A stretch of 64,000 bases of DNA from contig CP045477.1 in assembly GCA_009392915.1 (NCBI GenBank), positions 608,001 through 672,000 on the forward strand. Direction: 5' to 3'. Positions 2,332 through 24,707 of the stretch are shown here, piece after piece. The stretch comes from Candidatus Forterrea multitransposorum CG_2015-17_Forterrea_25_41. Lineage in GTDB: Archaea > Iainarchaeota > Iainarchaeia > Iainarchaeales > CSSED10-239. A model generated the notes under the pieces. The model was given only the letters and a program-made list of their open reading frames with translations. It ran no database searches and had not been told where the DNA came from. The position numbers and the translations under genes are program-made. Numbering within the stretch: position 1 is the first letter of the stretch; each line of letters begins with the position of its first letter.

Positions 2332-3632
2332 AAAGGATCATCATAAGATAAAAGGCCGTCTTTTTGGGTTTTTTTAGTATAATTTTGTTTTTGTGGTTTT
2401 TTTTTCTTTTTTATAATTATTAAAAATATAATTAAAATTATTATTATTACAGAAATTACAATATAATAAAAAACACTATTTTGTTCAACTTCTTCTTCAA
2501 TAAAACCAGAATCAATAATTGCTTTAGATTTAGACTTTAAAATTGAAATTTTATCAATAGCTTGTGAATATTGAGCTTTTGAAACTAAATCATTATATTC
2601 ATTATATGTTCTAAAAAGAGCATCAACTTCTGATTGTTCCTTCCAATAAGGTTTGTATTCATCGTTTAAAATTGTAGTGATAGCATGCTCTAAATTGTTA
2701 TAATTTGTAAAAGAAGCATCATAACTAGTCATCAAGTCCTTTAATTTAACAGACTCCATCCTAAGTTTCAAGTTATCAATAAATATACTTACCTTTTCAT
2801 CACCTTTTAAATCTAAATATAGTTTAGAATAGAAAGAACTTGTTGAAGAAAGGCTTTCATAAACATAATTAATATTTGAATTAAGGCTTGAAGGAGGAGA
2901 AACTAAGTTTACAAGCCCAGAAATTTCATTTGCTGGAATATTATCTTCAGCTACAATTTTTGTAACCAATTGTTCTGATTCTTGAATATATTCTAAAGAA
3001 GCTTGAGATAATTTATCATAACCTTTAAAAGAAGAATCAAAAGATTTTAAAAGACTAGATGTATCTTTACAATCTGGAGAAGATAAAAATGAATTTTGAG
3101 AATTTAGAAGTGAAGTTAAACTTTCTTTTAGATCTTCAAGATAAACTATTAGATTATTTATATGATTAATTGTTATTGTTATTTGAGAATTAAGTTCAAC
3201 AGAATAATTCTTTTCTAAAAGACCATTTAATTGTGCTTTCTTTGAATTAAGAGAAGTAATTATTGAATTAATTCTGTCAATTAATTGAGAAGATAAATAA
3301 TTATTAGGATTTGAATTTTTTAAAGATTTTAAAAGATATTCAGTTTTGATTAAATTAACATTAAAAGAATCAGTTTCACTTAAATAAACTTGAGAAAGCT
3401 CATTTGAGATTGGAACAAATAAAACAGATTCTCCTAAAGAATTTACAATAGGTATTACAAAATATTCTTCATCTTCACAACTTATCTTTGGTTGTGTAAA
3501 AGTATCAATCATATCATTTTCAGAAAGATACTCTTTTGAAATATCTTGAGCTCCAAATAAAGATAAAGCAAAAAGGTTTGAAGAAAATAAAACAATCACT
3601 AAAAATATTAATAAAATCTTTTTCATAAACAT
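2328..3632 (-). CDS. Secreted, C-terminally membrane-anchored hypothetical protein
   Basis: Likely start at the internal Met (MFMKKILLIFLVIVLF...), giving a signal peptide. Long Ser/Asn/Leu-rich predicted extracellular region. C-terminal hydrophobic helix followed by KKKKK. Confidence 0.4.
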   Translation of the reverse strand: MFMKKILLIFLVIVLFSSNLFALSLFGAQDISKEYLSENDMIDTFTQPKISCEDEEYFVIPIVNSLGESVLFVPISNELSQVYLSETDSFNVNLIKTEYLLKSLKNSNPNNYLSSQLIDRINSIITSLNSKKAQLNGLLEKNYSVELNSQITITINHINNLIVYLEDLKESLTSLLNSQNSFLSSPDCKDTSSLLKSFDSSFKGYDKLSQASLEYIQESEQLVTKIVAEDNIPANEISGLVNLVSPPSSLNSNINYVYESLSSTSSFYSKLYLDLKGDEKVSIFIDNLKLRMESVKLKDLMTSYDASFTNYNNLEHAITTILNDEYKPYWKEQSEVDALFRTYNEYNDLVSKAQYSQAIDKISILKSKSKAIIDSGFIEEEVEQNSVFYYIVISVIIIILIIFLIIIKKKKKPQKQNYTKKTQKDGLLSYDDPF

Positions 3633-3651
3633 CAATTTTTTTAAACTATTA

Positions 3652-4629
3652 TTATTCATCTCTAATAGCTCCATTATTAAAAACTTTATAGAAAATAAAA
3701 ACATATAAAAGACCTATAAGAGAAAAGGCAATTGAAAAATATATCTGCGCCATTGAAGCAATTAAAATACCAATGAAAAGAGCAAAGAATTTATTTACAA
3801 CAACCATTAAAGGAATACTTGAAATTGAATCTAAAACTTGATTTTTAATATCATTAGTATTTAAATTTGCATAAAGTCTATCAAAATCTTCAGTACTTGT
3901 TTTAGCACTACTGTTTTCTTTAATATTTTCTATAAAGTCAATATAGTTATAGACTACAGGATCTTTTAATTTTTGTAACTCTTTATATTCTTCTGAATCT
4001 ATTATAAAATTTACAACTGAAGAAGTACTTGCTTTACTTATACTGTAAGAAGTACCAAGCCAATTACCAATATCATCACCTACAAAAACTTCAACCATAC
4101 CCATTTGCATTTTTTGAGAATAACTTGCTTGATTTGGTAAGATTACAAGAAAGATTACTAAAAATAAAGTTAAAGATAAAAGAATACTTATCTTTGAATT
4201 TGCATAGTTTGAAAGAGAGTTAAGATGATCTCTTTCTTTAAATTTATTATATGTTAGAATAGATAAAAGTAAATGAGAAGCTAAATAAAATAAAACAAAT
4301 AACCAAAAATTTGCAGAAAATTTAAATATTAAAAAAGAAATTATAAAACCTAAAGTTATTCCTAAAAAAACTTCTAAAAGATCTAAATTTTTTTCTTTTC
4401 TAACAGATAAAGCAATACAGATTGCAGAAGTTATTGGAAATAATAAAAGTAAAAATAAAAAATCTAATGTTAAAAAAGTATTAACAATATCAGATAAATT
4501 AAAAACAATTAAAGAAGTTAGAGAAATACCTGATGCTTTATAAAAAAACATCCACATTATTATTGAAAAAGCAATTAAAAATATTTTTAAAATACCTTTT
4601 TTTTCAAAAACTTCAGTATAACTCATCAA
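3652..4629 (-). CDS. Polytopic integral membrane protein (function unknown)
   Basis: Multiple hydrophobic helices spread over 325 aa. No recognisable catalytic motif. Confidence 0.4.
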   Translation of the reverse strand: MMSYTEVFEKKGILKIFLIAFSIIMWMFFYKASGISLTSLIVFNLSDIVNTFLTLDFLFLLLLFPITSAICIALSVRKEKNLDLLEVFLGITLGFIISFLIFKFSANFWLFVLFYLASHLLLSILTYNKFKERDHLNSLSNYANSKISILLSLTLFLVIFLVILPNQASYSQKMQMGMVEVFVGDDIGNWLGTSYSISKASTSSVVNFIIDSEEYKELQKLKDPVVYNYIDFIENIKENSSAKTSTEDFDRLYANLNTNDIKNQVLDSISSIPLMVVVNKFFALFIGILIASMAQIYFSIAFSLIGLLYVFIFYKVFNNGAIRDE

Positions 4630-5536
4630 TGTTCACCAAATCTAAAAGACCTTCTTTTTCATCAACAATAAAAGTTGTTTCTGCTTGAGAGACATAACTA
4701 TCTTTCCTATCAACTAAAACAGGAAAGCTTGCAATAATTTCATTTTTTAAAAGCTCTCTTAAAGCATATCTTCTTTGAAATGTAGAAAGATTTTTACCAA
4801 CCCAATATTCTGAAAAAGGAGTTCCATTATATTTATGGATCTCTTCAAGAATTAATTTAGCGTCTTTATTTCTAATACCTCTATCTTCTATGTGTTGAAA
4901 AATTAAAATTTTATCAGCTTCAGAAACAAAACCATCTCCAGTAGATGCAAAAGGTTCAATTGCAAATGGAAGATTAATTTCTGTTATTGGAATATTAATA
5001 TCATTTGAAGTGTTTGGTATTGATGGTGATGCATGAGGTTCATATCTTTCAATTGCATGTCCTGTAAGATTTATAATTGTTTTAAAACCTCTTGAAGTTA
5101 TTTCTTTATCAATTATTTTTCCAAGATCAGAGATTTTTGTAGTTTTATAATTATTTATTAAATGCTCTTTTGCTTTTTTAAGAGCAAAAAAAGAAGCATC
5201 TCTTAAAGATTCATGTTTTTTATTAAAAATTATTGTTTGTGCAGAATCTGCAATATATCCTTCAATTGAAACACCAACATCAACTTTTAAAACATCATCT
5301 TCTTTTAAGATTACTGGAGATTCTAAATCATAGGTGTTATGTGCAGCTTCATTATTAACAGACAGGTTTACTGGCCAAGCAGGAACAGCACCATTATCTA
5401 AAATAAACTTATCAATTTCAACACCTATTCTTGAAAGGTCAGAGCCAACTTTAATTAAGTTCTTTGCAAATTTTTGAGTTTTAAAGTTTAACTCTCCAGC
5501 TTTTTTTAAAAGTTTAAGATTTATATCTTGAGTCAT
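4613..5536 (-). CDS. map: Methionine aminopeptidase, archaeal type 2 (M24 family)
   Basis: Pita-bread metal-binding region motifs DVGVSIEGYIAD and TGHAIERYEPH. Length ~300 aa. Confidence 0.85.
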   Translation of the reverse strand: MTQDINLKLLKKAGELNFKTQKFAKNLIKVGSDLSRIGVEIDKFILDNGAVPAWPVNLSVNNEAAHNTYDLESPVILKEDDVLKVDVGVSIEGYIADSAQTIIFNKKHESLRDASFFALKKAKEHLINNYKTTKISDLGKIIDKEITSRGFKTIINLTGHAIERYEPHASPSIPNTSNDINIPITEINLPFAIEPFASTGDGFVSEADKILIFQHIEDRGIRNKDAKLILEEIHKYNGTPFSEYWVGKNLSTFQRRYALRELLKNEIIASFPVLVDRKDSYVSQAETTFIVDEKEGLLDLVNIDELY

Positions 5537-5542
5537 GTAAAA

Positions 5543-6052
5543 TCATTTTTTATTTTTTTTAGAAATATTTTTCTTTGAACTATTAAAAGAAAGTATAAAT
5601 AAAAATAACATCGCAATTATAATTCCTGAAAATAAAGGAAGATCACTTACAGGAACTTTATTTGAAGATTTAATTACTGTAAAATATTTACTAAAAAGAT
5701 TATTTGAAGGATTATCATCTGTATCAGTTAAAAAAATTCTTAGCATATATGGTTGGTTTGAATAATTAATATCAGCACCTGTAACTGTTATTAAATTATC
5801 ACCATCATTTAAAGAACCATTATCAGTATAGAAAGGAGCTCCTCCTGTTGGTCTGTAAATGTTTAAATCATAATCTGCAAATCCTGGAGAATTTGAAGAA
5901 ACTACAACTGTAATATTAAAATCTGAATTAGCTCTTACAGTGTTTGGAATTACAACATCAGTTATTCCAAAATCATCATAAGCAGAAATATTGAAAGAAA
6001 TAAAAATAATCATTAAAAAAGATATTATACTAAAAATAATTTTGTTTTTCAA
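5543..6052 (-). CDS. Small secreted hypothetical protein with C-terminal membrane anchor
   Basis: N-terminal hydrophobic signal. C-terminal TM helix plus KKNISKKNKK tail. Confidence 0.35.
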   Translation of the reverse strand: MKNKIIFSIISFLMIIFISFNISAYDDFGITDVVIPNTVRANSDFNITVVVSSNSPGFADYDLNIYRPTGGAPFYTDNGSLNDGDNLITVTGADINYSNQPYMLRIFLTDTDDNPSNNLFSKYFTVIKSSNKVPVSDLPLFSGIIIAMLFLFILSFNSSKKNISKKNKK

Positions 6053-6171
6053 AATCTATCACCTTACACCTAAATATATTTATATAAAACTAATAAATAT
6101 ATTAACTGGTAAGTAATAAAAAGCTTTTTGTTTTAATAAAAAAAAGAAAAATAGAGATGATCTAATACTTT

Positions 6172-6639
6172 TTAAAGTCTAGAATCAAAATCTCCGTGGT
6201 TAACCATTTTTGTAACTTCAGAAGCAGGAAGATTATCAATAGTAACACCCATTGCTCTACAGGAACCTAAAATTTCTTTAACAGCAGATTTTTTAGATTT
6301 TGAAACTAATTGAGAATATTTAGCATTCATGATTTTTAAAACTTGTTCAAATGTTAAATTTCCAGCAACTTCTTCATTAACTTTTGAAGCACCTTTCTTA
6401 ATATTTAATTCTTTTTTAATTAATGCTCCTGTTTGAGGAGAACCTAATTCAATTGTAAATTTCTTTTTAGAATCAATATGTATCTTAACAGGAATTTCCA
6501 TACCATTAAGATGTTTTGTATCTTCATTTATTTTATTTACAATTTCCATTGTATTTACTCCTAAAGGACCTAAAGCAGGACCAATTGGAGGACCAGCATT
6601 TGCTTTTCCAGCTTCTACTAAAACTTTTATTGTAGGCAT
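6172..6639 (-). CDS. rpl11: 50S ribosomal protein L11 (uL11)
   Basis: N-terminus MPTIKVLVEAGKANAGPPIGPALGPLGVN is diagnostic of L11. Confidence 0.9.
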   Translation of the reverse strand: MPTIKVLVEAGKANAGPPIGPALGPLGVNTMEIVNKINEDTKHLNGMEIPVKIHIDSKKKFTIELGSPQTGALIKKELNIKKGASKVNEEVAGNLTFEQVLKIMNAKYSQLVSKSKKSAVKEILGSCRAMGVTIDNLPASEVTKMVNHGDFDSRL

Positions 6640-6663
6640 ATTTTAATCACTCTTTTTATATTT

Positions 6664-7101
6664 TTAATTTAATAATTTTATGTTTTCTGCTTTAATTGTT
6701 ATTGGAATCTTAACACTTGCATCGAAAAGTTCAATGATAACTTCTTCTTTTGCTAAATTAATTCTAACAACTTTTGCTCTAGAACCTTTAAAAGGGCCTA
6801 GGATAATTTCAACAGTTTGTCCAGGTTTTATAGAAGTCATTAATGGTCTTGATTCTAAAACTCCTGCAATTTCTGAAATATTAATGTTTCCTTCAACAAT
6901 TTTTCCACCTTTAATATGAGGAACATTATGAACTAAAATTTCAACTGTTTTTTTAGAATCAGCTTCAACTAAAAGATACCCTTTTAAATCAGCCATTTCA
7001 ACTACAGAATAAACTTCAAGTTCATCTTGTCTTGCTTTATTTGCTAAAAGATCCATTATTACTTTTTCTTGACCAACTGTTGTTCTTATTGTAAAAATCA
7101 T
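6664..7101 (-). CDS. spt5: Transcription elongation factor Spt5 (NusG homolog)
   Basis: NGN domain plus C-terminal KOW motif (GQTVEIILGPFKGSRAKVVRI). Conserved position between SecE and L11. Confidence 0.85.
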   Translation of the reverse strand: MIFTIRTTVGQEKVIMDLLANKARQDELEVYSVVEMADLKGYLLVEADSKKTVEILVHNVPHIKGGKIVEGNINISEIAGVLESRPLMTSIKPGQTVEIILGPFKGSRAKVVRINLAKEEVIIELFDASVKIPITIKAENIKLLN

Positions 7102-8398: not shown

Positions 8399-8504
8399 AA
8401 ATAAATAAATATATTATTATATAATAAGTATAATATTATATATTATAGTGAGGAAACCTTTAAATATAATATGGTTAACCTATTTTTATGAAAGGTGAAT
8501 AAAA

Positions 8505-9407
8505 ATGATATATGAAAACGTAAAAAATGTTGCAAAAGGAATAAAAGAGATAAAAATTCAAGGTGCAAGTAATATTGAGCTTGAAGCAATAAAGGCTATT
8601 AAAGAATATATTTATGAAACTAAAAAGCTTGGAGAAGAATTAATTGAAGAAACAAAAGAAAACATTAATCATTTAGTTGTTCAAAGACCAAATGAACCAA
8701 AGCTTAGAAACTCATTAAACTATATTTTTCAAGAAGTTAAAAAACATCCACATAATACTGAGGAAATTGAAAAAGAAATTGAAAAATATCAAGAAAAAAC
8801 AGAAATTGGAAATGAAAAAGTTTCTGAAATGGCATCTCAAATGATTACAGATGGATCTAAAATTTTAACACATTGCCATTCAACTTTAGTTGAAAATGCT
8901 TTTAAAAAAGCATATGACAAAGGAATTGATTTTCAAGTATTCTGTACAGAAACAAGACCTAGATACCAAGGAAGAATAACTGCTAAAAATCTATCAGATT
9001 ATGGAATTAAGACAACAATGGTGACTGATGCTTCAGTTACACATTATCTTAAAGGAATAGATTATTTTTTCACAGGTGCAGATGTTATTTTTTCTGATGG
9101 AACAATAATGAATAAACTTGGAACTCATGCAATTAGTATTGCAGCAAAAGAATTTAAGACAGAACATATAGTTCTTACAACTACACATTGTGTTGAAGCA
9201 AACGATCTTTTATCCTTTGTTCAAGAAATTGAAGAAAGATCTGAAGATGAAGTTTGGGAAAAAGAAAATAGACCAGTTAATTTAAAGATTAAAAATCCTG
9301 CTTTTGATATTGTTCCAAATGATCTTATTGGAAAATTTATAACAGAAGAAGGAGTATTTTCTCCAGAAACACTTTCATTCTGGGTTAATCAATTCCAAAG
9401 AAAATAA
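8505..9407 (+). CDS. eIF-2B alpha/beta/delta family protein (aIF-2BI / ribose-1,5-bisphosphate isomerase-like)
   Basis: C-terminal block GADVIFSDGTIMNKLGTHAISIAAKEF is typical of the eIF2B/MtnA family. Confidence 0.7.
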   Translation: MIYENVKNVAKGIKEIKIQGASNIELEAIKAIKEYIYETKKLGEELIEETKENINHLVVQRPNEPKLRNSLNYIFQEVKKHPHNTEEIEKEIEKYQEKTEIGNEKVSEMASQMITDGSKILTHCHSTLVENAFKKAYDKGIDFQVFCTETRPRYQGRITAKNLSDYGIKTTMVTDASVTHYLKGIDYFFTGADVIFSDGTIMNKLGTHAISIAAKEFKTEHIVLTTTHCVEANDLLSFVQEIEERSEDEVWEKENRPVNLKIKNPAFDIVPNDLIGKFITEEGVFSPETLSFWVNQFQRK

Positions 9408-9450
9408 TTGTTTTATTTATAAAAAGAATTTTTCTTTTTATTTTTTTAAT

Positions 9451-11877
9451 TTAGAAAAAATCATTTAAACCTTTCTGTTTTTTACCAGTTACAAGCTCAT
9501 CTTTTGAAATATTAAAAACTTCAAAAATAGAAACTACAGAAGGTAATAACTGATTTTCAAGATAATAATTAGTATCATAATCATAATCATTTTCTTCTTT
9601 GTAAAGTCTTGCTTTATCAGAAATATTTTTAGAAGGATAATTTGTAATTATGTATTCAACTAAAGCATTTTCTGAAATCTTCTCTCCATTATTTTTAGCA
9701 TAAGATAATGCAGACATTGCAGGATTTAAAGTTTTATAATTTTTAAGACTTTTATGAACAAAAGATTGTAAAACTAATTTTTCAATAGGTATTTTTTTAT
9801 CTTCAAGAGCTTTAATAATATTTCTTACATACTCTAAAGCTTTTTTAACATCTTTATCAATTAAAAGAATATTAAATAATTCTTTTTGAGTTTCTTTTAC
9901 AAGCAAACACCAATCTCTTCTTACAAACTCAAAACCTTTAATCTTTAGAGAACCATCTTTTGAAAGAAGAGCATATTTTTTCTTAGCTCCCTTAGTTTTA
10001 TCTCTTGAAAGAACAAATAATCCAGAAGTAAAAAGACCCTCAGTTTCAAGAGACATTGACTCTGGAAGAGATTTATTTATTTTTTCAAGATCAGAATATA
10101 GTTTTTTTTCATCATTGTATTTTATAAAACAAGAATCTGTATCAGAATATATAACAGTATAACCTAAATTTTCAAAATCACTTATAGTTTCTTGAATCTT
10201 TGTCCTTACTAAATGATACATTATTTCAAGACAAGGCCTACAATACCATCTTGCACCTGCAAAACCCATGTAACCATAAGTAGATGCAAGTAATATTTTT
10301 AGAGCATATTGTTTTGCAAAAAGAGATCTGTATTCTTGAGTATCTTTTTTATAATCTTTCATTTTATTTTTAATTGAAATTCTTAGAGATAAAAAACTTT
10401 CTAAAAGTTCAGGAACAAAACCTTTTTTGTCTTTTGAAATTTTATAACCTAAAACTTCAGAATAATCTTTTGATTCAATATTAATTGTTTCAGGACTTAT
10501 GTTATATGCCATAATTAAAGAAATATGATAACTTCTAAAATCAACAACAGCAATATTTTCATGAAGTCCAACTAAAGGATCTTTTACAAAAGCACCAGTA
10601 AAACTAAACTCATATCTATTTGAAACAACTTCTGGGGTAGGTTTATTTTCAAGAAGAATATCTTTTTTAAAATAATTATAAATAAATAATTTTTCAATCA
10701 TCTGTCCTGCAGAAGTTCTTAAAGTATCATAAATTGGAGACGCTATTAATTTTGAAATTTCATTAATTATTGAAAGATAATTTATAGAAAGATAATATGT
10801 TGCAAAAACATCATCTATATTATATTCTATAATTTTTGCATAATCTTGAGAAGAATAAAGATCAATAAAATCTTTTACTTTTAAAATGATTTTTTTATTA
10901 CCAGTTATTTTTTCATAAACAGAATTAAGATCTAATTTAGAATAATTAAAGACTTGAAGATAGTTTAAAAGTCTCATTAAAATATAAGTGTCAATGTGTA
11001 TAATGCTATCTATAGATACTGAAGTATTTCCTCTTTTATGAAAAGTTAATTTTTTATTAAACTTTATATCTTGAGATTTAATTACTTTATATCTTTTATA
11101 AATATAATCAAAATCAAAACGATCTCCATTATAAGTGAATATTAAATCAGGATCTTTTTCTTCTATTCTTTTAAAAAAAGAATCAATCATTAAAGATTCA
11201 TCTGTAAAGAAATTAACTATTGTATTTTTTTCTTTAAAAGACTTATAAAAATCATCTTCATTAAAAGAAATATCTTTAAAGAAGAAAATCTCCTTATTAT
11301 AATTTTCATCCATCATACAGATGGAAATTATTGGAGAAGTTTTTGGTTTTGGAAAAGAAAGATCCTTTAAAGGTAAAACTTCAATATCAAAAGTTAAATG
11401 TTTTAAAGACTCTGGCAGAACATCTTCTAAAACTTCAAAAGAAAGTATTTTTGAACCTGTATAACTAAATTTAATTTTTTTAAAATTATTTAAAGAATGA
11501 TCAATAAAAAACCTTTGAATAAAAGGAATATCATACTCTCTTAAAGAATAAGAAGAAGATAGATTAATTTCTTTATCAAGTAAATGTGCTCTTGAAGAAA
11601 TTAATGATTCAATATCTTTAAAGATTATTTTATAAGAAAAAGAAGCGCCTTTTTTATCAGTTTTAATAATTTCTAAAATATTTTTTAAAGACTTAGAAAG
11701 TAAAATAAGATCTTTTTCTAAAAGAAGTTTATCTGAAACTAAATAGAAATATGGAGAAAAATCATAACTATAGTTTTTCTTAACACCATCATTTCCTTTT
11801 ACACTTAAAAAAAGAGAACCATCATAAAAGGCATTTATAAAAATACCTTCTGATTTTAAAATTGTATTAGACATCAT
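9451..11877 (-). CDS. polB: Family B DNA polymerase
   Basis: Pol motif C YSDTDS (VIYSDTDSCFIK), motif B KILLASTYGYMGF, and N-terminal exonuclease region. 808 aa. Confidence 0.85.
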   Translation of the reverse strand: MMSNTILKSEGIFINAFYDGSLFLSVKGNDGVKKNYSYDFSPYFYLVSDKLLLEKDLILLSKSLKNILEIIKTDKKGASFSYKIIFKDIESLISSRAHLLDKEINLSSSYSLREYDIPFIQRFFIDHSLNNFKKIKFSYTGSKILSFEVLEDVLPESLKHLTFDIEVLPLKDLSFPKPKTSPIISICMMDENYNKEIFFFKDISFNEDDFYKSFKEKNTIVNFFTDESLMIDSFFKRIEEKDPDLIFTYNGDRFDFDYIYKRYKVIKSQDIKFNKKLTFHKRGNTSVSIDSIIHIDTYILMRLLNYLQVFNYSKLDLNSVYEKITGNKKIILKVKDFIDLYSSQDYAKIIEYNIDDVFATYYLSINYLSIINEISKLIASPIYDTLRTSAGQMIEKLFIYNYFKKDILLENKPTPEVVSNRYEFSFTGAFVKDPLVGLHENIAVVDFRSYHISLIMAYNISPETINIESKDYSEVLGYKISKDKKGFVPELLESFLSLRISIKNKMKDYKKDTQEYRSLFAKQYALKILLASTYGYMGFAGARWYCRPCLEIMYHLVRTKIQETISDFENLGYTVIYSDTDSCFIKYNDEKKLYSDLEKINKSLPESMSLETEGLFTSGLFVLSRDKTKGAKKKYALLSKDGSLKIKGFEFVRRDWCLLVKETQKELFNILLIDKDVKKALEYVRNIIKALEDKKIPIEKLVLQSFVHKSLKNYKTLNPAMSALSYAKNNGEKISENALVEYIITNYPSKNISDKARLYKEENDYDYDTNYYLENQLLPSVVSIFEVFNISKDELVTGKKQKGLNDFF

Positions 11878-11907
11878 AAAAAATCTTATAAAAAATAAAA
11901 TATTATT

Positions 11908-12558
11908 TTAAAGAATACTTGAAAAGAAATACATAATAACAAATAAAATAATTGTCATAACAATATTTCCTAAAACTTCAAAATTAAACATTTTTTTTAC
12001 AAAATGATAAAACATTAAAATATAATAAACTAATAAAGCTATTGAAAAAATAAATAATAAAATTAATCCAACAACAGCTCCTCCACCTAAATTAGGAAGC
12101 ATACCTGAATTATAGATGTAATCTGGATTTTGAATTGCCATTGACATAAAAGGAATTACTTTTGGCATAAAAATTAAAACAATTGCAAAAACAACTAATA
12201 TTGCAATAATAGAAACTATTCTAAAAGCCGCAAGAGAAGAAAGTATGTTTTTTAGTTCTCCACCTTTTAGATTATTCTTACCTTTTACAAAATAAAGTAT
12301 TAAATAAATAATTATTCCTAAAATAAACCAACTAAAAACAAAAGTTATAATTAATCTAATTGTAAAATAGGATAATACATTTGGTGACTTTAACAAAAAT
12401 AAAACTAAAGTTTCAATAAAAATTGAAATGAAAATTACAATCGCAGCAGTAGAAACATCTACTTTTTCATAAAAATGATTAATTAGTTTTTTTGGATTAA
12501 AACTAACAATTTCTTTTTCATCTTCAATTAAGTTTTTCTTTTTAAGTCTAGCAACCAT
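11908..12558 (-). CDS. Integral membrane protein (unknown function)
   Basis: At least 5 hydrophobic helices. No catalytic Asp motifs. Confidence 0.4.
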   Translation of the reverse strand: MVARLKKKNLIEDEKEIVSFNPKKLINHFYEKVDVSTAAIVIFISIFIETLVLFLLKSPNVLSYFTIRLIITFVFSWFILGIIIYLILYFVKGKNNLKGGELKNILSSLAAFRIVSIIAILVVFAIVLIFMPKVIPFMSMAIQNPDYIYNSGMLPNLGGGAVVGLILLFIFSIALLVYYILMFYHFVKKMFNFEVLGNIVMTIILFVIMYFFSSIL

Positions 12559-12703
12559 ATAGTATCACAATATTATTATATATAAATATATTTATATATT
12601 TATCTTTTATTTATAATATTTCAAAAAACAAACAAATAAGTATTTTAAAGACAACTATAACATTATATTATTAAATAATTCAATAAATGGAGGTTTTTTA
12701 AAT

Positions 12704-12988
12704 ATGACAAGAAATAAAGAACAAGATTTGTTAAATGAAGCTATTTATGATAAAGGAGTAACTTCTCTTGATGATGTTAAAAAAGAAAAACCTCAAAAAG
12801 TTAAAAAAAAAGCTTTAGGTTATGATGAAGGTATTTTAGACACAGTTTTTAAAAAGAAAAAAGTTGTTAAAAACCAAGCTTCTGCTCGAAAAGAAAAGAA
12901 AGAAACCTCTCTTGGAAAAAAATCTATTAATCCTTTTAATATTTTTAAGAAAAAGAAAAAAGGAGTAGCCTTTTTTAATAAACTTTAA
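12704..12988 (+). CDS. Small lysine-rich hypothetical protein
   Basis: 94 aa, strongly K-rich, low complexity. Confidence 0.3.
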   Translation: MTRNKEQDLLNEAIYDKGVTSLDDVKKEKPQKVKKKALGYDEGILDTVFKKKKVVKNQASARKEKKETSLGKKSINPFNIFKKKKKGVAFFNKL

Positions 12989-13002
12989 ATTTTGAGAAAT
13001 AA

Positions 13003-19933: not shown

Positions 19934-20725
19934 TTAATCTTCAAACAATTCTGAATCTATTAAATATTCTTTCTTTTGTTTTTTAGGTTTTATTACAGAA
20001 TTTTTAATAACAAAATTTTTAATAGATTTTTCAAGAGTATCTCTAAAGATTAAAATAATAGATAATAAAATAATAAATATAATTATTAAATAATAAAAAA
20101 TATTTGAATCACTTGACCCAACAAGTACAAAACTTGGTTTTGGAGGTTTTTTTTCATAAATTAAAACTTTTATTTGGTTTGTTGAAAAACTATTCCAGTA
20201 AAGAGTATTATCAACAATCTCTGCTTTAGGGTTTGTATCTCTAAAAACTAAAGGATCGTAGACTTTTATAGATAATTTTGAATTAGAAGGAATTACATAA
20301 AGATTATTAACAATTAAACTTCTAAATAAATTTTCATTAAACTTCCAAAGAATATCATCTTCTGTTTCATAGAAATTTTCTAATATTAAATCAGATATTT
20401 CATAATTAATATTTATTTGATCTTTTGTTTCATCAAAAATAATAGAAACATTTGAAAAATCATTTAAATAAATATTAGGTTTTAATCTTGGATCAATTTC
20501 TTCAAATTTATCAAGATCTATATTTGCAGCAATTATTTGGTTTTTAAAATTAACTTTATCATTATAGATATAAGGGTTATAAGATACATCCCAAACTTCT
20601 TTAATAATTGCCTTATCTGGACTTTTAATATCAATAGTTATATTAAAATTAGTAATTTCTGCAGAATAAACAGTAGAGGCAAATAAAAAAATTAAGAAAA
20701 ATATTAATAATTGTTTATATTTCAT
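19934..20725 (-). CDS. Secreted hypothetical protein with C-terminal TM anchor
   Basis: N-terminal signal peptide and C-terminal hydrophobic helix. Confidence 0.35.
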   Translation of the reverse strand: MKYKQLLIFFLIFLFASTVYSAEITNFNITIDIKSPDKAIIKEVWDVSYNPYIYNDKVNFKNQIIAANIDLDKFEEIDPRLKPNIYLNDFSNVSIIFDETKDQININYEISDLILENFYETEDDILWKFNENLFRSLIVNNLYVIPSNSKLSIKVYDPLVFRDTNPKAEIVDNTLYWNSFSTNQIKVLIYEKKPPKPSFVLVGSSDSNIFYYLIIIFIILLSIILIFRDTLEKSIKNFVIKNSVIKPKKQKKEYLIDSELFED

Positions 20726-20859: not shown

Positions 20860-21891
20860 TTAAAAGATCCTATCAAAACCATTTATTTCAAAAACATAAA
20901 TTAATAAATTATAAGAATTAGCATAATTTGCATACCCTAAAAAAGAAAAAAGAGAAGAATTAAAATTAATTAAAGAAATTTTTTTAGAATTTAATAAAAG
21001 ATTATTAAGTTTTTGTCTTTTTATAAATCTCTTAACATTTGATTTTCTTAGTTTTACTTTAGTTGGGTAAATTTTATAACCTAAAAAATCAACCCCTTTA
21101 TCTACTAAATTAATATAAGTTTTGTTTTTAGGAATTGTAAGTAACAAATTATTTTTTAAAAATAATTTAATTTTTCTTCTGAAAATACTTAACTCTTGTT
21201 TAGAATTTGAAAATATTAAAAAATCATCAACATACCTATAATAGTGTTTGATTTTTAAAGTATGCTTAATATATTGATCAAGCTCATTTAAATAGATATT
21301 TGCAAAAAGTTGAGAAGTTAAATTACCAATAGGAATTCCTTTTTTATTATTTAAAAACGAAAAAGAATAACTATCTATTATTTTATATATTATAACCAAT
21401 AATTGCTTGTCTTTAATTCTTTTTTTTATAATATATTTTAAAACCTCTTTTTCAATAGAAGGAAAATATTTTTTAACGTCTTGTTTTAAGTAATATTTAG
21501 GAGATTTTTTAGATTGAACTAATTTTTTTATTTCTAAAAAACCTTTAAAAGTACCTTTTCCTTTTCTACATGCAAAAGAATTATTTATAAAAGTTTTATC
21601 AAAGATAGGCTCAATAATATTTATAATTGCATGTTGAACAACGACATCTCTAAAACAAGGAGCACTAATAATTCTTTCTTTAGGTTCATATACCTTAAAA
21701 TTTCTATATGGAGAAAAATTAAAATTACCAGAAATTAATTCTTCTTGTATTAAAAATAATTCTTTTTCAAGATTTTGAGTAAATTTTAAAATATATTTCT
21801 TATTAGGATTTGATTTTCTGGCACGTTTATATGCATTATAAATGTTTTTAAAAGAAGTAAATTCTTCCCAAAGATTATTATATGATTTCAT
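20860..21891 (-). CDS. DGR-type reverse transcriptase
   Basis: RT motifs including catalytic YVDD (YRYVDDFLIFS) and the DGR-specific motif-4 signature IGNLTSQ. Lies directly downstream of the template repeat. Confidence 0.88.
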   Translation of the reverse strand: MKSYNNLWEEFTSFKNIYNAYKRARKSNPNKKYILKFTQNLEKELFLIQEELISGNFNFSPYRNFKVYEPKERIISAPCFRDVVVQHAIINIIEPIFDKTFINNSFACRKGKGTFKGFLEIKKLVQSKKSPKYYLKQDVKKYFPSIEKEVLKYIIKKRIKDKQLLVIIYKIIDSYSFSFLNNKKGIPIGNLTSQLFANIYLNELDQYIKHTLKIKHYYRYVDDFLIFSNSKQELSIFRRKIKLFLKNNLLLTIPKNKTYINLVDKGVDFLGYKIYPTKVKLRKSNVKRFIKRQKLNNLLLNSKKISLINFNSSLFSFLGYANYANSYNLLIYVFEINGFDRIF

Positions 21892-22124
21892 TTTTTATAG
21901 AACCTATTAAAAATTAAAAGTTATTACAGATTTCTTTAATCTAATAAAATTAAAATACTAAATGTAATAACTTATTTTTATATTCGATTTTTAAAACATA
22001 AAAACAAAAATGTTTTTATGGCATACCTTATATGCAATCAGGAAACATTTTACAGATGTAGTTTTTAGAATATACACTTTGCATATTTTAAAAAATAAAA
22101 ATAAATATACAAACTCTGATAAAA

Positions 22125-22146
22125 CCTTATTTCTTTAAAAATAAGG
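22125..22146 (-). other. Stem-loop abutting the 3' end of the DGR template repeat
   Basis: ccttattt-ctttaaa-aataagg gives a perfect 8-bp inverted repeat, 2 nt from the TR boundary. Confidence 0.4.
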
Positions 22147-22148
22147 AG

Positions 22149-22269
22149 AAACTACTGAACACAGCGCAGGCCGATGTTGTTGTTCCGGTTCCCAGGAGTA
22201 TTGTTCAAGTTCAAGTTCAAGACCCCTGCATTAGTTCCATTGTTCCAGTTACCACCGCGCAGGAAAGAA
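22149..22269 (-). repeat. DGR template repeat (TR)
   Basis: 121-nt GC-rich repeat, 101/121 identical to the 3' end of the target gene. On the gene strand every mismatch is an A in this copy, including repeated AAC codons. Not inside an ORF. Confidence 0.88.
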
Positions 22270-22345
22270 ACGACTCCTTTTTCTGTAAAAGCCCTATTCT
22301 TTTTATAACTAAAAAGAACAAAATAAATAATTATTAGAAAAGTTT

Positions 22346-22675
22346 TTATAAATTATGCTTTAAAAGCCCCCCAATTAATTTACCTAAATCATTTAGTTTT
22401 TTAGAAATAACTTCATATTTTTTAAAAGAAATAATTTTTAGATCAAAAGAGAGCCTCACATATATTTTTAAAAGTTCTAAATCAGTATCAATTTGATTTA
22501 AAGTATTAATTTTATGTTTTGAAAAAAGAATAGTATTAGATAATAAAGAAATAGTAGTTTTTTTCAAATCTTCTCCTAAAATATATTTGTCAGATTTAGG
22601 AAATTTTTTAATTTCAGGATAAATATAAAGTAAAAAGTTATATGTTTCTTTATATAACTTTAAATCAAATAACAT
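22346..22675 (-). CDS. avd: Avd (DGR accessory variability determinant); four-helix-bundle family
   Basis: 109 aa basic protein. KLYKETYNFLLYIYPEIKKFPKSDKYILGEDL...LNDLGKLIGGLLKH matches the Avd/23S-IVS four-helix-bundle pattern. Located between target gene and TR. Confidence 0.7.
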   Translation of the reverse strand: MLFDLKLYKETYNFLLYIYPEIKKFPKSDKYILGEDLKKTTISLLSNTILFSKHKINTLNQIDTDLELLKIYVRLSFDLKIISFKKYEVISKKLNDLGKLIGGLLKHNL

Positions 22676-22685
22676 ATTATAAACA

Positions 22686-23093
22686 CTATTTTTTATTTTC
22701 TTCTATTTTTTTTATAAGTCCATTAAAATATTTAATTTTTTCTTCAAATTGATTATAAAAAAAAAGAATTTTATCTTTAGATAAATCTTTATTAATTTCA
22801 CTTAATATAAGTAAATTTGATTGAGTTGTAGAAACACAATCTCTTGAATAAGAATAAAGTAATGATTTTTCATTAGAATGATATTTATTATATCCTTTTG
22901 ATAAAAAAGAAAGAATATTTATTAAATTTGAAATAGTTTCTTGAAAAATAAAATTATCATTTATAGATGATTTATTTTCTTCTAAAAATTTATAAGTATT
23001 AATAACTAAAGGAAAGAGTTCTTTGTAAACCCCAAAATTTAAAATTCCTCTTTCTATATTTACTAAACTCATAACAACCATATTTTTGTCCAA
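22686..23093 (-). CDS. Hypothetical protein inside the DGR cassette (possible second accessory factor)
   Basis: 135 aa ORF, co-oriented, between the target gene and avd. No recognisable motif. Confidence 0.35.
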   Translation of the reverse strand: MDKNMVVMSLVNIERGILNFGVYKELFPLVINTYKFLEENKSSINDNFIFQETISNLINILSFLSKGYNKYHSNEKSLLYSYSRDCVSTTQSNLLILSEINKDLSKDKILFFYNQFEEKIKYFNGLIKKIEENKK

Positions 23094-23267
23094 TATATAT
23101 TGTGATTTATTAAAACCACTTTAATTGAGTAGCAAATTTTTTTGTAAAAAACAAAAAAATTTGCAAAAGCAAAAAACATTTGCTTTCTCTTTTGCCAATT
23201 TATTTTTTTCTTTTTTCACTTTTATTTTTTATTTTTTTGCACAAACTCAATCTTGAAGCATTGTTTT

Positions 23268-23309
23268 TCGCGACGTTACCCGTCTTACCGTCTTGCCGTC
23301 TCACCCGTC
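23268..23309 (-). repeat. GC-rich tandem direct repeats 3' of the VR
   Basis: Four imperfect tandem copies of (a/g)(c)ccgtct(t/c) (gene strand GACGGNNA) in an otherwise AT-rich intergenic region, ~34 nt downstream of the target-gene stop. Confidence 0.4.
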
Positions 23310-23342
23310 AAAATACAATATTCTCGAAATACATTTTTTCAA

Positions 23343-23463
23343 AAACTACTGAACACAGCGCAGGCCGACGACGCTGCCCCGGCCCCCAGGAGTAAAGTTC
23401 AAGCGCAAGCCCAAGACCCCCGCATTAGTTCCACTGCCCCAGCCACCACCGCGCAGGAAAGAA
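23343..23463 (-). repeat. DGR variable repeat (VR) at the 3' end of the target gene
   Basis: 121-nt copy of the TR with 20 substitutions, all at TR-adenine positions (A to G/C/T on the gene strand). Spans the final 39 codons plus stop of ORF 23346-24707. Confidence 0.88.
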
Positions 23464-24707
23464 TATACAGTAGTAGAAGTATCTCCAAAATCACTATAAG
23501 TGTAAATTCTACCAACACCATTATCTGCTGCATTATAATTATTACTTGTAAGTAAAAATAAATCTTTATACTCTAAAGTGGTATTACCTAAATTATCAGA
23601 AGAAATGTATTGGGCTTCTCCACCACCTTTTGAATAATCAAAATAATCAAAACCAGTAGTAAAGTTACTATCATCAGCATTGTTAAAACCATCAGGTTGG
23701 TCTTTTCTTTGGATAGTGTCACTTGTCCATTGCCAAACATTACCAGCTAAGTCCCAAATTACTTCACCGTTTGTTAAAGTTAAGGTTCTTTTTGTAGTGC
23801 CAGAAAGTTCATCAAAACCTTCCATAGCACCAGAAGAAGAAGAATTACCACGTGGAAGATAACCTTCTCCAACAACTCCAGTTGACCAGTTTGAAGGTAC
23901 TTGTTCAATGTTTCTTGCAATGGTCATCCATTCGTCATTTGTTATTAAATGTCCACCTACTGCAGCACAAGCTGCAATAGCTTCGGTTTGGGAAATTCTT
24001 GCTATTGGAGAACCTTCTGGAGTTGATACTAAAGTGCCTGGAGTAGGACATAATTCATAACTATAAGTATTATAGGTTAAAGAACCAGTATTACAATCTG
24101 GATAATCAGCTACAAGGTTTCCTTTACCATCTCCATTTGCATCCATTTTCATTTCATATTTTGAAACACAAAAACCACCACGCTCATTCATGGTTCCATA
24201 TAAATGGTTTCCTGGAACTGGAACATAGCCTTCTGGACAAGAAAGAGGAGTTTTTACGGTTTGAAAAAGATCAGGTTTAGTTATCATTTGAGAATTGTCT
24301 AAATATAAAACTAAATCTAAAGAGTCACCTAAAATACCATGATCAAGAGTAGCAGATTGATTGGAAAGAATAGTGACAGGAGGTTCTAAAGGATTAATGT
24401 TTGAATTGCCTAATAAACTATAACCGGTAATGGTAATAGAAGTATAAGGAGAACCATAAGGGGGTTTATACTCTAGAAGAGAACGACCATTGATAGAAGA
24501 TTTAATATTTAAATAAAAGCCAGTTTCTGATTCTGTATAAACTTCAATACTTGAAGCTTTAGAAAAAGAATCATTGGTAAAGCCTTTACCCCAAGAAAGA
24601 ATAATACCAATAATAGCAACAGAGACAACTATTAAAAGAATGGTGGCTATCAAAGGAGAAATACCTTTTTGAAATCTAAAACGCTGAAAAATATATTTGA
24701 AAAACAT
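23346..24707 (-). CDS. DGR target protein: pilin-like surface protein with C-terminal FGE-sulfatase/C-type-lectin-fold variable domain
   Basis: N-terminus FQKG|ISPLIATILLIVVSVAIIG is an archaeal class III (prepilin) signal. C-terminal domain has the FGE hallmark AGNVWQWTSD and ends ...RGGGWGSGTNAGVLGLRLNFTPGGRGSVVGLRCVQ, which is encoded by the VR. Confidence 0.85.
   Translation of the reverse strand: MFFKYIFQRFRFQKGISPLIATILLIVVSVAIIGIILSWGKGFTNDSFSKASSIEVYTESETGFYLNIKSSINGRSLLEYKPPYGSPYTSITITGYSLLGNSNINPLEPPVTILSNQSATLDHGILGDSLDLVLYLDNSQMITKPDLFQTVKTPLSCPEGYVPVPGNHLYGTMNERGGFCVSKYEMKMDANGDGKGNLVADYPDCNTGSLTYNTYSYELCPTPGTLVSTPEGSPIARISQTEAIAACAAVGGHLITNDEWMTIARNIEQVPSNWSTGVVGEGYLPRGNSSSSGAMEGFDELSGTTKRTLTLTNGEVIWDLAGNVWQWTSDTIQRKDQPDGFNNADDSNFTTGFDYFDYSKGGGEAQYISSDNLGNTTLEYKDLFLLTSNNYNAADNGVGRIYTYSDFGDTSTTVYSFLRGGGWGSGTNAGVLGLRLNFTPGGRGSVVGLRCVQ

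Follow-up and report, generated by a model that had tools for sequence, protein, structure and literature searches.

We found that a 64,000-nt stretch of the Candidatus Forterrea multitransposorum genome (contig CP045477.1 of assembly GCA_009392915.1, positions 608,001 to 672,000) contains what is very probably a chromosomal, intact and recently active diversity-generating retroelement (DGR) of an archaeon in the Iainarchaeota, a DPANN lineage. We refer to this entire 64-kb stretch as the window, and coordinates are positions within it unless another locus is named. The cassette lies on the minus strand in all its parts, and consists of a target gene that ends in the variable repeat (VR), an open reading frame (ORF) called ORF135, the gene avd, a non-coding template repeat (TR), a spacer and a reverse transcriptase (RT) gene (Table 1). 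An earlier note on this DNA had listed a five-part cassette in this order on one strand, and all of its ORF and repeat coordinates were reproduced. Its description of a clean, apparently intact DGR also held for every DGR-defining feature that was tested. The ORFs of the target, ORF135, avd and the RT are all intact, and the arrangement corresponds to architecture B1 of Wu et al. 2018 (target-avd-TR-RT). This type of cassette is well known, and the earlier note was correct in remarking that DGRs had already been found in DPANN and Candidate Phyla Radiation (CPR) genomes. The element is a canonical DGR, with clade-level extras beside it. The earlier note had offered no interpretation of the 135-aa ORF, and made no mention of the pilin-like N-terminus of the target, the structured spacer RNA or the GACGG array after the VR.

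The TR and VR align without gaps over 121 nt, with 20 mismatches, and form the longest direct repeat of the cassette region. All 20 mismatches coincide with adenines in the TR, which has 31 of them (hypergeometric P=2.4e-15), and none occurs elsewhere, as the earlier note had anticipated for this alignment. Nineteen of the 20 are at codon position 1 or 2 of the target's reading frame. The window has exactly two occurrences of the repeat's 23-nt 3′ core, compared to 0 expected, and the GC content of the TR is 48%, versus 24.9% for the window. The VR has 16 adenine-templated codons, of which 12 are AAY in the TR, giving ~3e16 possible peptides.

The RT matches Pfam RVT_1 (E=1.7e-23), and its best solved relative is PDB 8ub7_A (E=1.9e-56, residues 2-336), which belongs to the Bordetella DGR ribonucleoprotein (RNP) according to the entry descriptions. 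Both signatures that the earlier note had reported, IGNLTSQ and YVDD, are present in the ORF. The motif of DGR RTs is [I/V/L]GxxxSQ, and residues R74 and I181 of the Bordetella RT (bRT) promote adenine mutagenesis (PMC7826257). The equivalents of both residues are kept in the window RT when it is aligned to 8ub7_A.

An alternative, also raised in the earlier note for group II introns and retrons, is that the enzyme is the RT of a group II intron, retron or antiviral DRT system and that the TR/VR repeat is coincidental. The top NCBIfam model for the RT is in fact a group II intron RT/maturase (E=2e-45), there are also matches to retron and DRT models, and no DGR-RT family is among its NCBIfam matches. 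However, these matches are far below the curated cutoffs: 155.5 bits versus 300 for the intron model TIGR04416, 63.1 versus 235 for the retron model and 63 versus 200 for Drt3a. Group II intron and retron RT structures reach E=1.6e-21 or weaker, which puts the Bordetella DGR RT ahead by ~35 orders of magnitude. Moreover, the motif is IGNLTSQ rather than QGxxxSP, the protein has no maturase or endonuclease extension, a search with Rfam found no intron or retron RNA at the locus, and a coincidental repeat would not be expected to have mismatches confined to adenines (P=2e-15). The alternative is effectively refuted, with almost no probability left to it, and we regard the enzyme as a DGR RT.

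The avd product scores 90.8 bits with the NCBIfam model NF033474 (DivGenRetAVD), above the curated cutoff of 80 for this DGR-Avd equivalog, and matches Pfam bAvd (PF22296) with E=2e-21. The gene that the earlier note had called Avd-like is thus recognized as an avd. Avd is present in about 74% of DGRs.

Comparisons with related loci, which we designate by numbers such as L005, indicate that the DGR was recently active. L005 is a syntenic copy from another metagenome, and has 93% nucleotide identity to the window locus. The TRs of the sister loci are 97.5-98.3% identical. The window and L005 TRs have two non-adenine differences, and both of these recur in the cognate VRs. The VRs themselves differ from each other at 16 adenine-templated positions. 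This combination of mirrored TR changes and VR divergence at adenine sites is what is predicted by TR-to-VR homing after the lineages split. Within the 90%-identity cluster of the target, the protein P0203 differs from the window target at 1 of 453 residues (V445L, a templated codon in the VR), and P0206 has V445L plus one substitution elsewhere. More distant variants of the target differ at 12-13 of the 16 templated codons, versus 14-17 of the 414 others (Fisher P=2e-13 and 3e-14). The mismatches in sister cassettes are likewise restricted to adenines (18/18, 16/16 and 14/14).

It could also be that the cassette is a relic, i.e., a past DGR that no longer works and whose TR/VR differences are historical. 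Decay does occur in the clade. L001 has lost the GACGG array described below, the ORF135-family gene (ORF128), avd and the separate TR through a precise recombination between VR and TR, and L002 combines such a VR×TR collapse with an in-frame stop in the RT. In L082/L083, ORF128 and avd are kept, the TR is truncated and there is no RT. In addition, three points weigh against a functional DGR in the window. No IMH/IMH* sequence difference (between the initiation of mutagenic homing site and its TR counterpart) lies inside the repeat, and the 3′ ends of TR and VR are identical up to the homology boundary. The window has no canonical GC-rich hairpin with a GRNA loop after the VR, a feature that is common in DGRs and is not part of their definition. 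Finally, activity is deduced solely by comparing assemblies. Nonetheless, the four ORFs in the window are intact, TR changes came to be mirrored in the VR after the window and L005 diverged, otherwise identical target proteins differ by a single VR residue, the RNA helices discussed below are kept by compensatory changes, and the catalytic and mutagenesis residues of the RT are conserved. A relic is therefore very unlikely, and a recently active DGR is the reading that we adopt.

The sister loci document natural routes by which DGRs decay, namely VR×TR collapse, nonsense mutation of the RT and loss of the RT. In L001 (5579-5695) and L002 (5621-5739), the VR is fused to the 3′ flank of the TR, and the RT is still downstream (compare 4601-5924 in L081). 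L001 corresponds to L081 minus 1,084 nt, a segment with the GACGG array, ORF128, avd and the upstream flank of the TR. In the L002 RT (6001-7020), the in-frame stop is at codon 72 (YEPK*R). We considered that the collapsed loci might be assembly artefacts, and rejected this idea: two independent assemblies share the junction, L081/L087 provide an intact counterpart with the same flanks, and L002 has the RT nonsense mutation in addition. L002 also contains a 4,568-nt perfect direct repeat of the collapsed target-RT unit (2072-6639 and 8423-12990), which may reflect either a recent duplication or an error of assembly. The remnant in L082 and L083 (4586-6447) has a long target with PKD and FGE (formylglycine-generating enzyme) domains, ORF128 and avd. 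Its TR ends at about position 93, and a SpoIIM-like gene replaces the RT.

The TR is embedded in a structured RNA. A 471-nt segment (22350-21880) that includes the region from the avd stop to the RT start folds better than shuffled sequences (z=-4.0), and the TR/spacer region has no match to an Rfam family, whether at the gathering threshold or at E<=1. We made a model of eight helices from an alignment of 10 loci and by inspection, in which the helices were named explicitly and then tested. Pairs changed on both sides number 28 of 68 in the model, versus 7-15 when the partners are slid by 1-3 columns, and none of 500 shuffles reaches the observed values for pairing or for changes on both sides. 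In helix H1, the sequence TTTTACAG, located 13 nt upstream of the TR, pairs with CTGTAAAA in the spacer, and for the two loci that are most distant, RNAduplex recovers the corresponding pairing (-16.1 and -13.0 kcal/mol). Helix H4 joins the last 7 nt of the TR (GTAGTTT) to AAACTAC in the spacer. Compensatory changes are found in L090/L086 (GTAATTT/AAATTAC) and in L003 (GTAGTC/GACTAC). Two points here count against the reading as a whole. Cells in its helices are paired in 88.8% of cases, compared to 44-54% with slid partners, but the helices were derived from the window sequence and the former value is thereby inflated. Also, the last paired base of the spacer is a C that is followed by a conserved A, such that the exact priming nucleotide is not assignable.

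The order of the elements flanking the TR is the same as in the Bordetella RNP. That particle has an Avd-binding stem-loop (Sp3-33), a template:primer duplex between TR117-129 and Sp47-56 with priming at A56, a cPRT Stop duplex between the region upstream of the TR and the spacer, a Thumb Ring and a bRT-binding stem-loop, and similar elements were found in 207 of 278 Avd-containing DGRs, including those of Nanoarchaeota and CPR (bioRxiv 10.1101/2023.10.23.563531). Because the element order matches, we infer that the mechanism is the same as that of the Bordetella DGR, and the contacts between helices and proteins would also be analogous.

In the mechanism that we propose, the RNA fold, the H4 pairing and the transfer from TR to VR have comparative support, and the other steps are taken from homology to the DGR of Bordetella phage BPP-1. 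A transcript of the avd 3′ flank, TR and spacer would fold into the defined structure that is supported by covariation. The Avd pentamer would dock on the stem-loop that immediately follows the TR, and the RT would be held by the long 3′ stem-loop together with the conserved single-stranded stretch. The duplex between the last 7 nt of the TR and AAACTAC, which shows compensatory changes, would set cis-priming, so that the cDNA starts 5′ of GTAGTTT, at approximately position 22156. The RT would copy the TR faithfully except at adenines, consistent with its conserved equivalents of the bRT mutagenesis residues, and cDNA synthesis would halt at the TTTTACAG:CTGTAAAA duplex. The mutagenised cDNA would then replace the VR, anchored for homing by the GC-rich 3′ end (TCGGCCTGCGCTGTGTTCAGTAGTTT), which is identical in TR and VR. 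The outcome could be up to ~3e16 variants over 16 residues of the ligand-binding face of the C-type lectin domain. The structure represents an archaeal DGR RNA with covariation whose elements correspond one-to-one to those in the Bordetella cryo-EM structure, and supports a mechanism that is conserved across domains of life.

DPANN and CPR organisms are unusually rich in DGRs, and the roles of their targets are largely unknown. The target in the window matches Pfam FGE-sulfatase (E=3.6e-9), and the family is called “SUMF1/EgtB/PvdO family nonheme iron enzyme” by NCBI. An AlphaFold2 model built on 65 homologues (pLDDT 89.3) has a long helix near its N-terminus (aa 18-53), followed by a beta-sandwich (aa 58-148) and by a large domain at the C-terminus. 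When this model was compared to the PDB with Foldseek, the best matches were TaqVP (5vf4, E=2.8e-9) and Mtd (1yu0-4), followed by FGE enzymes. The Pfam match, weak matches to EgtB and SenA and the enzyme name that source databases assign to the family are what would be expected if the target were an FGE/SUMF1-type enzyme, as NCBI annotates it, and not a variable binding protein. However, the enzyme matches cover only aa 229-351 and are far under the equivalog cutoffs, DGR variable proteins have the nearest solved folds, the last 38 codons show hypervariability at their Asn-templated positions, and the N-terminus appears to be of the pilin type. We give the enzyme explanation very little credence, and regard the target as a variable binding protein. 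Given that TaqVP and Mtd are the closest folds and that the family has a predicted pilin-type N-terminus, the NCBI name is probably misleading for these proteins.

Several comparisons point to this kind of N-terminus. The N-terminal ~140 residues of the model resemble a Pyrobaculum type IV pilus subunit (8fk7; Foldseek E=3.3e-4, sequence E=0.0047), and the N-terminus of the window target matches that of UpsA (E=5e-5). As a pilin criterion, we used an N-terminal [KR]G/[ISA]xP... followed by a hydrophobic helix (TIGR02537 or Pilin_N). At the level of the family, with 65 aligned members, TIGR02537 matches 40/65 and the UpsA N-terminus 42/65. Several members are called “flagellin-like protein” by JGI. 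Because the C-type lectin (CLec) domain sits on a protein whose predicted N-terminus is of the archaeal type IV pilin type, its most likely place of display is the cell surface or a pilus-like fibre, as judged from sequence and model. A plausible use of the diversified protein is attachment to hosts or substrates. Two observations argue against display on a fibre. First, the window target by itself is below the curated cutoffs of both pilin models, with 15.4 bits for TIGR02537 (cutoff 20) and 15.7 for Pilin_N (cutoff 25.2). Second, no pilus-assembly operon is adjacent to the cassette.

A lone T2SSE/FlaI-type secretion or pilus-assembly ATPase (675 aa, 304-2331 on the plus strand) is encoded ~20 kb from the cassette. 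The genes around it are either housekeeping or uncharacterised, and none is a recognisable pilus gene. Proteins that combine a pilin-like N-terminus with an FGE-type CLec domain form a large paralogous family (730 matches), with up to four members on one contig of 977,747 bp.

Archaeal DGR targets were reported to be usually without a recognisable transmembrane or other conserved domain (Roux et al. 2021). A recognisable surface- or pilus-type anchor makes it a testable question whether DPANN DGR targets are displayed outside the cell. If the pilin N-terminus is real, it would mean that at least some of these targets are displayed on a surface or fibre, a point that was left open by Roux et al. 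2021.

The remaining gene in the cassette is ORF135. The earlier note had described it as a 135-aa ORF, and its reading frame is as given there (22686-23093), whereas its start probably differs. All 14 homologues begin at Met8 of ORF135 (MSL...), and the true start is therefore probably the ATG at 23072, which yields 128 aa. ORF135 has no match in Pfam or NCBIfam, Avd models included, and a profile search of the PDB was negative. BLASTP detected no similarity between ORF135 and Avd, jackhmmer seeded with Avd did not reach it, and hhalign gave a probability of 0.2% for the ORF135 family against 15 Avd sequences. We considered whether ORF135 might be a diverged duplicate of avd, and these searches eliminate that candidate, leaving the evidence at the level of the fold and the weak PF05635 matches. 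The 15 homologues that we found are 58-100% identical; two are annotated with PF05635, and when the members of the family were scanned individually, 4/15 matched it (best E=3.5e-6). Since comparisons with Avd at the profile level are negative, ORF135 is best described as a predicted second four-helix-bundle protein with the S23-IVP/Avd fold, and not as an Avd.

The ORF135-family gene is directly upstream of avd in 12/12 loci with an identifiable downstream gene (the window, L005, L004, L081, L084, L085, L082/L083, L087, L088, L089, L090, L092 and L093). Further loci of the clade were gathered by exact-protein look-ups. The two genes are often so close that the stop of ORF135 touches or overlaps the start of avd, and they are followed by the TR and RT, with the exception of L082/L083. 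In L004, the RT is just 52% identical to that of the window, yet an ORF135-family gene is beside avd. The same is true of L092, which has the most distant member of the family (profile E=1e-17). In a thirteenth locus, L091, the contig ends inside a 58-aa ORF that starts at the ORF135 stop. Among 80 genome loci with related RTs, only L004 and L005 have a member of the family. Given its consistent position directly upstream of avd, the gene is most likely a clade-specific companion of avd and a DGR accessory factor. It could work with the RT-Avd-RNA particle, e.g., as an adaptor or as a partner in a hetero-oligomer.

The region between the VR and ORF135 contains an array of GACGG repeats that reads GACGGGTGA GACGGCAA GACGGTAA GACGGG (23309-23280). 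It is the only four-copy array of a 5-mer in the window, and accounts for 4 of the window's 5 GACGG sequences. In L005, L081, L087, L088, L089, L082 and L093, the GACGG is invariant and the linkers vary. L090 has three copies, and L004 has GACCACT GACCTCTG GACCACTG in the same place. Unrelated bacterial and CPR DGRs appear to have equivalent arrays after their VRs, with motifs such as AATCTG, CTTGA and GACC. Arrays with an 8-nt period are present after the VR in Clostridia (AATCTGnn, 3-4 copies), in a gammaproteobacterial metagenome-assembled genome (MAG; AATCT, three copies) and, with five copies of CTTGAnnn, in a Parcubacteria locus that has avd on the opposite strand. Loci with bacterial or CPR arrays are L052, L057, L060, L067, L068, L072-L074 and L078 (~20-45 nt after the VR), L018 (5074-5115), L019 and L070/L071. 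The motifs comprise AATCTGnn (3-4 copies), CTTGAnnn (5 copies) and TGTAnnnn (3 copies), and hairpins often flank the arrays.

The array may serve for recognition on the target side, or as the place where a multimeric DGR protein docks and so marks the recipient VR, or it may act as an operator for the TR operon. A binding site specific to ORF135 is a weakened candidate, because bacterial DGR loci without ORF135 carry similar arrays. A G-quadruplex is unlikely, as the GAC part is conserved as well as the GG. Nor is the array universal among DGRs, because BPP-1 has just 30 nt between mtd and avd and its homing needs nothing beyond +24 after the VR (PMC3240598).

Most DGRs have a GC-rich hairpin or cruciform with a 4-nt GRNA loop at 4-34 bp after the VR (PMC3240598). 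In the window, a cruciform at this location is ruled out, since the DNA of the post-VR region (23230-23370) folds no better than shuffled sequences (z=-0.06). The window holds a degenerate remnant of a hairpin (TTTTT-GAAA-AAA, 23344-23333). By contrast, L089 has a canonical DGR-type hairpin (645-670, with a 10-bp stem and GAAA loop) right after the target stop, plus a GACGG array. A palindrome further downstream, GCAAATTTTTTTG-N7-CAAAAAAATTTGC, is kept in L005, L081, L087, L089, L088 and L093, and a conserved TTGGAC is located just before the ORF135 start. These elements may control the accessory operon, as a promoter, operator or terminator. The post-VR region has no Rfam match at the gathering threshold or at E<=1.

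We think that ORF135 and the array of four GACGG copies most likely belong to the DGR system. A simpler explanation is that the cassette is a plain, canonical DGR, in which the ORF135 product (an S23-IVP-type protein with another function) and the array (a terminator or operator) are unrelated neighbours without a role in homing. This would agree with the lack of a profile-level relationship between ORF135 and Avd, both in hhalign and in the Avd-seeded jackhmmer search, with the dispensability of sequence past +24 and the 30-nt mtd-avd gap in BPP-1, and with the arrays in bacterial DGRs that have no ORF135 gene. Moreover, the array lies upstream of the TR in every locus that has one, so a role as an operator is equally possible. 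On the other hand, ORF135 genes were recovered only beside avd, at three genomic sites (window/L005, L081/L087 and L093/L089) and in L004, L084, L085, L088 and L092. The family is also tiny, as an exhaustive profile search found 59 clusters (at 50% identity) among 1.84 billion representatives. After dereplication, arrays are present in 6/34 regions downstream of VRs, versus 0/34 downstream of TRs and 0/34 upstream of VRs, and the background rate of 0.7% per 100-nt segment gives a binomial P=2e-7 for 6/34. Unrelated neighbours are thus an unlikely explanation, although one that deserves consideration, and we favor extras that are part of the DGR. The more specific idea of a distinct Iainarchaeota DGR architecture, with a dedicated ORF135 bundle protein and a VR-proximal array of 3-5 copies, neither of which is described in the searchable literature, is put forward tentatively, as a possibility that we would not yet bet on.

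Table 1. Parts of the DGR cassette and its RNA, in window coordinates
Feature	Position	Strand	Description
Target (variable protein) gene	23346..24707	-	ORF, 453 aa: pilin-like N-terminus, beta-sandwich, C-terminal FGE-type C-type-lectin fold with VR
Predicted class-III-signal / archaeal type IV pilin-like N-terminal segment	24549..24668	-	aa 14-53, QKG/ISPLIATILLIVVSVAIIG...
VR	23343..23463	-	Last 38 target codons, stop codon and 3 further nt
GACGG direct-repeat array	23280..23309	-	4 copies, 8-9-nt period; begins 33 nt past the end of TR/VR homology
Conserved palindrome upstream of ORF135	23132..23164	-	GCAAATTTTTTTG-N7-CAAAAAAATTTGC, read from sequence
ORF135-family gene	22686..23072	-	128 aa from conserved ATG; 135 aa from TTG at 23093
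avd	22346..22675	-	109 aa, pI 9.5
RNA elements upstream of TR	22283..22319	-	H0 hairpin 22319-22311 / 22304-22296; H1 5′ strand TTTTACAG 22290-22283
TR	22149..22269	-	Non-coding, 121 nt; last 7 nt GTAGTTT (22155-22149) form the 5′ strand of H4
Spacer (Sp) RNA	21892..22148	-	257 nt, between TR and RT
Spacer H2 stem-loop	22146-22125	-	Directly 3′ of TR (2 nt after)
Spacer H3 hairpin	22113-22078	-	
Spacer primer strand	22064-22058	-	AAACTAC (H4 partner)
Spacer stop-duplex strand	22055-22048	-	CTGTAAAA (H1 partner)
Spacer H5 hairpin	22035-22021	-	
Spacer H6 hairpin	22020-21997	-	
Conserved single-stranded sequence	within 21996-21974	-	AAAAATCRAATAT
Spacer H7	21973-21918	-	Long 3′ stem-loop, TTAGTA in loop
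DGR reverse transcriptase	20860..21891	-	343 aa

The genomic context is that of an archaeal chromosome. Genes in the window encode the housekeeping proteins PheS/PheT, LonB, RNase Z, PolB, MetRS, ArgRS, FtsZ, L11, Spt5 and SufBD, and three tRNA genes are present. The closest RT loci are in MAGs of Candidatus Iainarchaeum/ainarchaeum, within the Iainarchaeota. Directly downstream of the RT is a gene (19934-20725, minus strand) whose 263-aa product has a signal peptide and, at its C-terminal end, a transmembrane segment. This protein has no family match, and is not conserved beside the cassette at other genomic sites.

The cassette type occurs at three genomic sites in the clade. At the first (window/L005), it is between the pheS side and a side with MBL-fold, RNase Z and LonB genes. 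The second (L081/L087) is between a DEAD helicase with UPF0175 and an FKBP with proteasome genes. The third (L093/L089) is beside a DDE transposase; L093 is the JGI sequence Ga0210014_1004249 and has a complete cassette. The more distant L004, L084, L085, L088 and L092 represent further contexts. The L093 target (NCT58966.1, GW776_05680) is on the same GW776 assembly and 839,632-bp contig as the window-type genes NCT58042.1 and NCT58043.1. Given that targets of the first and third sites share an assembly, a single genome of ~0.8 Mb probably carries at least two DGR cassettes.

The cassette is a clean and comparatively well-sampled example of what are, to our knowledge, the only known prokaryotic systems for targeted protein hypermutation. 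The ORF135 family and the periodic arrays next to VRs are possible additions to the list of DGR parts. If these extras prove irrelevant, the locus would be an ordinary, though exemplary, DGR. A literature search found no paper on Iainarchaeota DGRs, and the survey by Paul et al. 2017 might hold a prior account of ORF135 or the array.

Four accessory classes (avd, HRDC, MSL and CH1), as well as one DGR with two avd genes, were previously described by Wu et al. 2018 (PMC5758913). The ORF135 family fits none of these four classes and is not recognised by Avd profiles, so it would add a further accessory class, one with the S23-IVP/Avd fold.

The window DGR shares much with that of Bordetella phage BPP-1 (mtd-avd-TR-brt; PDB 8ub7). 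Both have the gene order target/VR, avd, TR, spacer and RT, and both have an Avd. The RTs align over their full length (E=2e-56) and have IGxxxSQ, YxDD and the R74/I181 equivalents in common, and in both cases the VR is at the C-terminus of an FGE-type CLec fold. The RNAs also have the same order of elements: a 3′ stem-loop, a TR:spacer primer duplex, a duplex between the upstream region and the spacer, a single-stranded stretch and a long 3′ stem-loop. However, the host is a cellular DPANN archaeon rather than a phage, and the window cassette has the ORF135-family gene as an extra. The gap between the VR and the next gene is 253-274 nt with a GACGG array here, versus 30 nt with a GC hairpin in BPP-1. 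At 257 nt and with the extra hairpin H3, the spacer is longer than the 144 nt of BPP-1, and the distance from avd to the TR is 76 nt rather than 0. Finally, the target is pilin-like, whereas that of BPP-1 is a tail-fibre protein.

DGRs of Nanoarchaeota and ANMV-1, including the variable protein AvpA (PMC4372165; PMC5006420), resemble that of the window in being archaeal (DPANN-related), in their adenine mutagenesis and in having a variable protein with a CLec fold. AvpA has a divergent, non-FGE CLec fold, while the window target is of the FGE subclass and is nearest to the bacterial TaqVP and Mtd. The Nanoarchaeota and ANMV-1 DGRs have an IMH pair (TGGGGT/TGGAAT), and their target genes contain hairpins with GRA loops; the window has no such hairpin. 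Many of the sampled loci in Woese-, Pace- and Nanoarchaeota have no detected avd, in contrast to the window's clade, which has avd and a second bundle protein. In L011, L014, L016, L021, L036, L037 and other loci of these three groups, the VR is just 280-470 nt upstream of the TR. No avd was detected in the stretch of sequence examined for many such DPANN loci, and their architecture is more compact than that in the window.

Cell-encoded targets can be compared as well. The best structural match to the window target, TaqVP of Thermus aquaticus (PDB 5vf4, E=2.8e-9), is a DGR variable protein encoded by a cell. Legionella LdtA is a precedent for the surface display of a DGR-diversified protein (PMC5758913); its anchor is a lipoprotein signal, whereas that of the window target would be an archaeal class-III signal/pilin helix and a beta-sandwich. 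A bacterial Type V pilus system reportedly follows the same logic, in that a DGR diversifies the binding end of a pilus-associated protein. It differs from the archaeal type-IV-like system proposed here in the domain of life and in the architecture of the target.

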